The position numbers and the translations under genes were made by a program. Positions 48,008 to 48,731 of a stretch of DNA of 64,000 nucleotides are shown piece after piece. This DNA is from Escherichia coli (GTDB lineage: Bacteria > Pseudomonadota > Gammaproteobacteria > Enterobacterales > Enterobacteriaceae): NCBI RefSeq assembly GCF_051903065.1, contig NZ_CP178438.1. The stretch is one strand, 5' to 3'. Within the stretch, counting starts at the first letter, position 1. Every line of letters starts with the position of its first letter. The notes beneath the pieces are model-generated. The model was not told where the DNA came from and did no database searches. It saw only the letters and a program-made list of their open reading frames with translations.

Positions 48008-48024
48008 AAGTGGTCTGACCTGAT
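48008..48024. promoter_or_regulatory. candidate FadR operator upstream of fadIJ
   Basis: AAGTGGTCTGACCTGAT versus FadR consensus AACTGGTCNGACCTGTT; 26 bp upstream of the fadI start. Confidence 0.5.
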
Positions 48025-48160
48025 CATAGTCTTAACCATTTTTTTACATTTAGCCAAGCGGAGAAAAGGGAAATTGGGAGCTATGACACAGTGAAGACAG
48101 GAGAAAGAAAAGAAAACGCCCCTACCTATTGCTGGCAGGAGCGTACTTATCCGAGAGGAA

Positions 48161-48445
48161 TTAACGCAGACCCAGCTGGAAGATCAGCATTTCAGCTTCG
48201 CAGGCAAAAGTGAAATCGATATCCAGGCGCACACCATCAGACTCTTCAGTGAAAGTCGGGGAGATTTTGCACGGTTCGGATTCCACGCTACGGGCTTTCT
48301 CAGTCAGCGCCGCCAGCGTTTGTTCTGCTTCTGCGCGGTTTGCAAACACGCGGCTGTAAGACGCTGTGCAGTCGGAGTTGTCCATAATGGTGCCAACATC
48401 CATACAGCAGCAAACCGGGGTTTCATCAGCACTACATTTACTCAT
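48161..48445 (-). CDS. yfcZ: YfcZ family protein (UPF0381)
   Basis: Start [26 protein letters not shown]...; 94 aa. Confidence 0.8.
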
Positions 48446-48689
48446 CGTTGATTTCCTCTGTATGTGCACCCAAGGTGCCAGATAAACGTTGTGGATATTT
48501 TACGCTTCCGGAAAGTGCTGCTCCAGTTGTTAATTCTGCAAAATCGGATAAGTGACCGAAATCACACTTAAAAATGATCTAAAACAAAATTCACCCGAAT
48601 CCATGAGTGCGCCACCTCCAAATTTTGCCAGCTGGATCGCGTTTCTTAGATCATATTTGAAAAAAGATAGAAACATACTTGCAACATTC

Positions 48690-48731
48690 CAGCTGGTCCG
48701 ACCTATACTCTCGCCACTGGTCTGATTTCTA
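48690..48731. promoter_or_regulatory. two adjacent FadR operator-like sites in the fadL promoter
   Basis: CAGCTGGTCCGACCTATA at 48690-48707 and CACTGGTCTGATTTCTA at 48715-48731. Confidence 0.55.

Follow-up and report, generated by a model that had tools for sequence, protein, structure and literature searches.

FadR operators of fadIJ and fadL on either side of yfcZ in Escherichia coli

On the Escherichia coli chromosome, yfcZ lies between fadI and fadL, and three short sequences resembling the FadR consensus are found on its two sides. Are these sequences operators used by FadR, or do they merely resemble a short motif? The question was addressed in a stretch of 64 000 nucleotides (64 kb), which we call the window. 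The window comes from an E. coli chromosome: when 1 kb round the site was used as a query, it matched 5425 of 5426 complete E. coli genomes, the annotation in the matching genomes was always fadI, yfcZ and fadL, and the 1-kb region was 100% identical to that of strain 23CRST027. We conclude, with a probability of about 0.96, that the three sequences are the operators through which FadR is known to act on fadIJ and fadL. The operators are already known as part of the textbook FadR regulon and are the same as those of K-12, namely fadL OL1 and OL2 and the fadIJ site.

The gene map was taken from the RefSeq annotation of identical or near-identical genomes. The minus strand carries fadI (3-ketoacyl-CoA thiolase; 46672–47982, start codon annotated at 47982–47980), the first gene of the regulated fadIJ operon, followed by fadJ (44528–46672), the second. 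yfcZ, of the DUF406 / YfcZ-YiiS family, is annotated on the minus strand at 48161–48445, between the two regulated promoters, and fadL on the plus strand at 48817–50157. The earlier note had described the sites as bracketing yfcZ on the fadIJ and fadL sides, and this arrangement is the one found. The fadR gene itself is outside the window; a search at an identity of at least 95% located it in 5422 of the 5426 complete E. coli genomes.

Three boxes over the fadI and fadL promoters

The fadIJ operator occupies 48008–48024 on the minus strand and reads AAGTGGTCTGACCTGAT on the plus strand and ATCAGGTCAGACCACTT on the fadI sense strand; it occurs once in the window. Counted from the A of the start codon, its edge lies at −26, leaving 25 nt between, which agrees with the claim that it lies 26 bp upstream of fadI. 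The box matches the consensus AACTGGTCNGACCTGTT at 14 of 16 positions, the best match of the window. A transcription start (A) for fadI was placed at 48021 on the minus strand from the K-12 genome-wide 5′-end mapping of Kim et al. 2012 (supplementary file 2 of PMC3415461). The 51-nt upstream string given there maps to the window at 50 of 51 positions, and with 3 reads only the precision of this start is limited. Relative to this three-read start, the box spans −3 to +14. The mapped start and the sequence together point to a probable fadI promoter at 48029–48057 on the minus strand, with a −35 hexamer TTGGCT (48052–48057), a 17-nt spacer and a −10 hexamer TAAGAC (48029–48034, at −13 to −8); TATGAT at 48023–48028 is an alternative −10.

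In published work fadIJ is listed as a direct target of FadR repression, by way of a site that overlaps the start of transcription (PMC9329746, citing Campbell et al. 2003). The same 17-bp box, also overlapping the fadI start, is present at the K-12 fadIJ (yfcYX) promoter (PMC9329746), and the sole difference in the fadI upstream region is that in the window the A-run separating the box from the ribosome-binding (Shine–Dalgarno) site is shorter by one A. The fadI 5′UTR is 39 nt here versus 40 nt in K-12.

At fadL the string CAGCTGGTCCGACCTATA occurs once in the window, at 48690–48707, and the 17-bp box proper, site 1, is AGCTGGTCCGACCTATA at 48691–48707 on the plus strand. It matches the consensus at 13 of 16 positions. 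Site 2, CACTGGTCTGATTTCTA, occurs once as well, at 48715–48731 on the plus strand, and matches at 11 of 16 positions, with an intact left half-site and a degenerate right half-site. All three strings of the earlier note were thus found exactly where it had put them. The two fadL sites are 24 bp apart centre to centre, with 7 bp between the 17-mers (PMC3460868 gives 8 bp).

The fadL transcription start (A) was placed at 48716 on the plus strand from the same supplementary file (PMC3415461), with 248 reads and a string that maps at 51 of 51 positions. This start reproduces the CRP positions −157 and +57 of Feng & Cronan (PMC3460868). By our own reading of the sequence, the core promoter (48679–48716, plus strand) has a −35 hexamer TTGCAA at 48679–48684 and a −10 hexamer TATACT at 48704–48709 (−12 to −7). 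Site 1 then lies at −25 to −9, over the −10 hexamer, and site 2 at −1 to +16, so the assignment of two sites to the fadL promoter holds on this mapped start. A generic σ70 consensus scan missed both the fadL and the fadI promoter, owing to weak hexamers or to a spacer of 19 nt. On the starts taken from PMC3415461, all three sites overlap the −10 or +1 region of a mapped promoter, which is the geometry of a repressor; a lack of such overlap, which by the earlier note would have refuted the reading, is seen for none of them. Start sites of fadI and fadL in K. pneumoniae were not found in the part of the Kim 2012 supplement covered.

The fadL sites have been bound by FadR in vitro. Both are exact matches to published gel-shift probes, fadL-FadR1-F and fadL-FadR2-F (PMC4259882, Table 2), which are exact substrings of the window at 48681–48715 and 48708–48742, respectively. 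FadR was found to bind the two sites with equal affinity, binding being complete at about 50 nM, and long-chain acyl-CoA (oleoyl-CoA) released it from both (Feng & Cronan 2012, PMC3460868). These gel shifts agreed with earlier DNase I footprints, and the repression of fadL by FadR was only modest (PMC3460868). The whole yfcZ–fadL spacer of the window is 100% identical to that of K-12 MG1655. The fadL operators were reportedly placed at −25 to −9 and −1 to +16 by DiRusso in 1993. The sequences in the window are identical base for base to K-12 OL1 and OL2 and their positions match (DiRusso et al. 1993; PMC3460868); nothing of substance differs, the host here being a non-K-12 E. coli strain. The reading of the boxes as FadR operators is therefore upheld by the K-12-identical spacer, the exact fadL probes and published FadR binding (PMC3460868, PMC9329746). 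A literature search for FadR ChIP-exo data returned nothing relevant.

The region 47900–48900 was also scanned for additional boxes, and no further match of at least 11/16 was found; three positions reached 10/16, which is the background level. A second FadR box at fadI was rejected on this basis, as was a FadR box at the proximal yfcZ promoter.

Sequence strength, conservation and rival explanations

The fadI box and fadL site 1 were the only matches with at most three mismatches on both strands of the 64-kb window, against 0.33 expected, and two or more matches of this quality were obtained in 5 of 100 dinucleotide shuffles. A TGGTC-N-GA motif was common to all three sites (TGGT at positions 4–7, G-A at positions 10–11), and the full core TGGTCNGACC had three exact occurrences in the window, including the fadI box and fadL site 1. 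Five independent FadR sites from the literature, fadD1, fadD2, fadBA, fabA and fabB (the PMC4259882 probes), served to construct a weight matrix. Among about 64 000 positions it ranked the fadI box and fadL site 1 2nd and 3rd, the 1st being the fabB operator, which sits in the window and also in the training set of the matrix. In mononucleotide-shuffled windows the best matrix score was, on average, much like theirs (14.5 against 13.8). With such scores arising in shuffled sequence, the placement of the boxes at fad promoters is part of the argument; and since a five-site matrix is too small for genome-level significance, we relied on the mismatch count with its shuffles, on position and on conservation. 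Taken by itself, the sequence of the two strong boxes is suggestive and not decisive.

By sequence, fadL site 2 is no better than chance. Its matrix rank was 27th to 126th, and 34 positions of the window score exactly 11/16 and 41 at least 11/16. The claim that all sites approximate the FadR consensus was therefore sustained for the fadI box and fadL site 1; the match of site 2 is at chance level and by itself decides nothing for that site. Scoring by matrix, which the earlier note had proposed as a check, or by consensus divided the sites in the same way: the two strong boxes scored well, and site 2 scored poorly yet is experimentally validated, so its poor score is uninformative for this site and does not refute it. 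Site 2 rests on experiment, position and conservation. It follows for sequence-only scans that scoring by matrix or consensus picks up the two strong boxes and would miss a real site 2, which is identifiable only by its 24-bp spacing from site 1, its position at the start site and its conservation.

Conservation was measured in 80 Enterobacteriaceae species collected by a YfcZ search, including Escherichia, Salmonella, Citrobacter, Klebsiella, Enterobacter, Kluyvera, Kosakonia and Raoultella. The fadL–yfcZ–fadI arrangement was kept in 78 to 80 of the 80. A fadI box was present in all 72 scorable sequences, at 14/16 in 59, 13/16 in 11 and 12/16 in 2, while its distance to the ATG floated between 23 and 35 nt. 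Mean identity was 98% for the fadI box, 89% for fadL site 1 and 96% for site 2, compared with 66% and 78% for the two spacers; at fadI the promoter block (48025–48057) reached 88% and the 5′UTR 75%, the 66% referring to the remaining spacer. The fadL pair kept its 24-bp spacing in 80 of 81 sequences. Across these 81 sequences, variation in site 1 was confined to positions 1, 2 and 9, the weakest or uninformative positions of the consensus, with CTGGTC, GACC and TATA (positions 14–17) essentially invariant; in site 2, positions 2–10 and 12–14 were invariant. Of the 355 17-nt segments of the fadL spacer, 30 reach the conservation value of site 2, and the CRP site and blocks of the 5′UTR are equally conserved. 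Because the fadL sites overlap the −10 and the start and other blocks are as well conserved, conservation there supports the use of these sites by FadR and does not by itself prove it. In the FadR regulon, fadIJ and fadL form the core that is conserved best, and they stay in it even in Shewanella (PMC5343134).

These data bear on three rival explanations. One is that the boxes resemble a short degenerate consensus by chance and play no regulatory role. The comparable top matrix scores of shuffled windows, the low rank of fadL site 2 and the many window positions that equal its score speak for such an account. Against it, just two positions in the 64 kb match with at most three mismatches, and each of them is at the transcription start of a fad gene; the boxes are kept across the 80 species with variation restricted to non-informative positions. 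For fadL, moreover, probes of identical sequence were bound in experiments, and published gel shifts and footprints already refute chance, which we regard as negligible overall. A second rival holds that the boxes are conserved mainly as core promoter elements (the −10, the start and the initial transcribed sequence), FadR binding being incidental. Site 1 does contain the TATA of the TATACT −10 and site 2 spans +1 to +16, and neighbouring promoter and 5′UTR blocks are equally conserved. However, conservation extends over the entire TGGTC-N-GACC core, and this core is no σ70 element; within site 1, position 9 varies between invariant neighbours, as expected for a palindrome bound by a dimer; and the fadI box is far better conserved than its own promoter block and 5′UTR. 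Together with the published FadR binding and FadR-dependent regulation (PMC9329746, PMC3460868), this makes the second rival very improbable.

The third rival is compatible with FadR binding: the boxes may also, or instead, be used by PdhR, a related protein of the GntR family. A genomic-SELEX peak for PdhR lies in the fadI–yfcZ spacer, a pdhR mutant had lower fadI, fadJ and fadL mRNA, and weak binding was seen at the fadL, fadM and fadH promoters (PMC7660256). The PdhR box assigned in that study, CAGCGGTAAAACCTGAC, lies inside fadI codons 2–7 (47962–47978) and matches the PdhR consensus at only 7 of 14 positions, while the FadR boxes at 48008–48024 and 48691–48707 match it at 10 of 14 each; PdhR may therefore cross-recognize the FadR boxes. 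Still, 10/14 is a modest match, the PdhR–fadI complex was smeared on gels (PMC7660256), and an activator at −3 to +14 is mechanistically awkward. We consider use of the boxes by PdhR unlikely.

Repression by FadR and comparison with known FadR sites

The reading of the boxes as FadR operators fits the published behaviour of the protein. A FadR dimer binds a 17-bp palindrome and is released by acyl-CoA of at least C14, and long-chain fatty acids induce fadIJ and fadL in a FadR-dependent manner (literature including PMC9329746 and PMC3460868). CRP-cAMP activates, and ArcA, OmpR and RybB repress, according to the literature.

In the mechanism that we propose for this locus, a dimer of FadR, a GntR-family protein, would sit on each 17-bp imperfect palindrome when long-chain fatty acids are lacking, contacting the TGGT...ACC(A) half-sites. 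At fadI there would be one strong box to fill, over −3 to +14; at fadL there would be two, 24 bp apart, over the −10 hexamer and the start site. Occupancy by FadR would then block the binding of RNA polymerase or the formation of an open complex, we infer by steric occlusion. Fatty acids imported by FadL and activated by FadD would yield acyl-CoA of at least C14, which would bind FadR; acyl-CoA-bound FadR would leave the DNA, and fadIJ and fadL would be transcribed. Activation by CRP-cAMP and repression by ArcA, OmpR and RybB would modulate expression further. The operators explain how the fatty-acid importer FadL and the second β-oxidation complex FadIJ are kept off until long-chain acyl-CoA appears. 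The fadL operators have been known since 1993 and the fadIJ operator since 2003; their identification here has little import beyond the quality of annotation.

Other members of the regulon allow a comparison. The fadBA operator, ATCTGGTACGACCAGAT, is likewise a 17-bp palindrome with TGGT and ACC half-sites over a promoter, and it too is a repressor site released by acyl-CoA; it is the DNA in the FadR–DNA crystal structures (PDB 1H9T, PMC9329746). Its flanking and central bases differ from those of the boxes described here, and the single site of fadBA contrasts with the tandem pair at fadL. The fabA and fabB sites are bound by the same protein through the same type of box. In contrast to the three fadI and fadL boxes, which overlap −10 or +1 and repress, the fabA and fabB boxes lie upstream of the promoter and activate. 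The fabB activator box of the window, GGCTGATCGGACTTGTT, is at 29116–29132 on the minus strand, 67–83 bp upstream of the fabB ATG (29049), and around it 56 of 57 positions agree with the published fabB-F probe.

The yfcZ promoters and other features of the locus

Could the boxes do more than repress? Two such roles can be envisaged, an action of FadR at a divergent yfcZ promoter and the cross-recognition of FadR boxes by PdhR, and we hold it to be quite improbable that either applies. The start of yfcZ itself was mapped to 48490 (PMC3415461), and the Kim 2012 table also lists a weak, distal, divergent yfcZ start at 48656 on the minus strand, with 10 reads (PMC3415461). Relative to this distal start, as listed there, fadL site 1 would lie at −51 to −35, which by analogy is roughly the geometry of FadR as an activator at fabA. 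The putative −10 of the distal promoter (TATCTT, 48664–48669) is poorly conserved in the 80 species, and a literature search found no paper linking yfcZ to FadR. If the first role were real, FadR could couple yfcZ, a conserved neighbour of unknown function, to fatty-acid status; if the second were, PdhR at FadR boxes would link the sensing of pyruvate and acyl-CoA at the same DNA.

Downstream of yfcZ, an intrinsic terminator at 48116–48144 on the minus strand shields the fadI promoter from transcription running on out of yfcZ; its stem of 11 pairs leads into a T-run. The hairpin is kept and differs from the K-12 version: its inner stem-loop looks inverted, with 22/27 identity to the reverse complement of the K-12 sequence versus 19/27 in the direct orientation.

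The CRP-cAMP site of fadL, AGTGACCGAAATCACA, is at 48551–48566 on the plus strand and is centred at −157.5, a position that agrees with the validated site 'centered 157 bp upstream' (PMC3460868). The block in which it lies ranks with the best-conserved of the spacer, and its distance upstream of the start is unusually large for an activator site. A further element, a perfect inverted repeat TGTTAC-agcac-GTAACA, lies in the fadL 5′UTR at 48764–48780 on the plus strand (+49 to +65). In the 80 species its arms are about 100% conserved and its centre is variable. This repeat is a formerly predicted CRP site (about +57) that does not bind CRP (Feng & Cronan, PMC3460868). The minimum-free-energy and the centroid RNA folds both show it as a hairpin; the fold of the fadL 5′UTR overall is not unusual (z = −0.8), and an Rfam scan of 46500–50500 gave no RNA family above threshold.

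Further along the window, downstream of yfdC, the annotation places a tRNA-Arg gene directly followed by a truncated tyrosine-recombinase / integrase pseudogene (about 54005–54900; 12106–12988 in the coordinates of locus L001). This pair looks like the remnant integration site of a mobile element.
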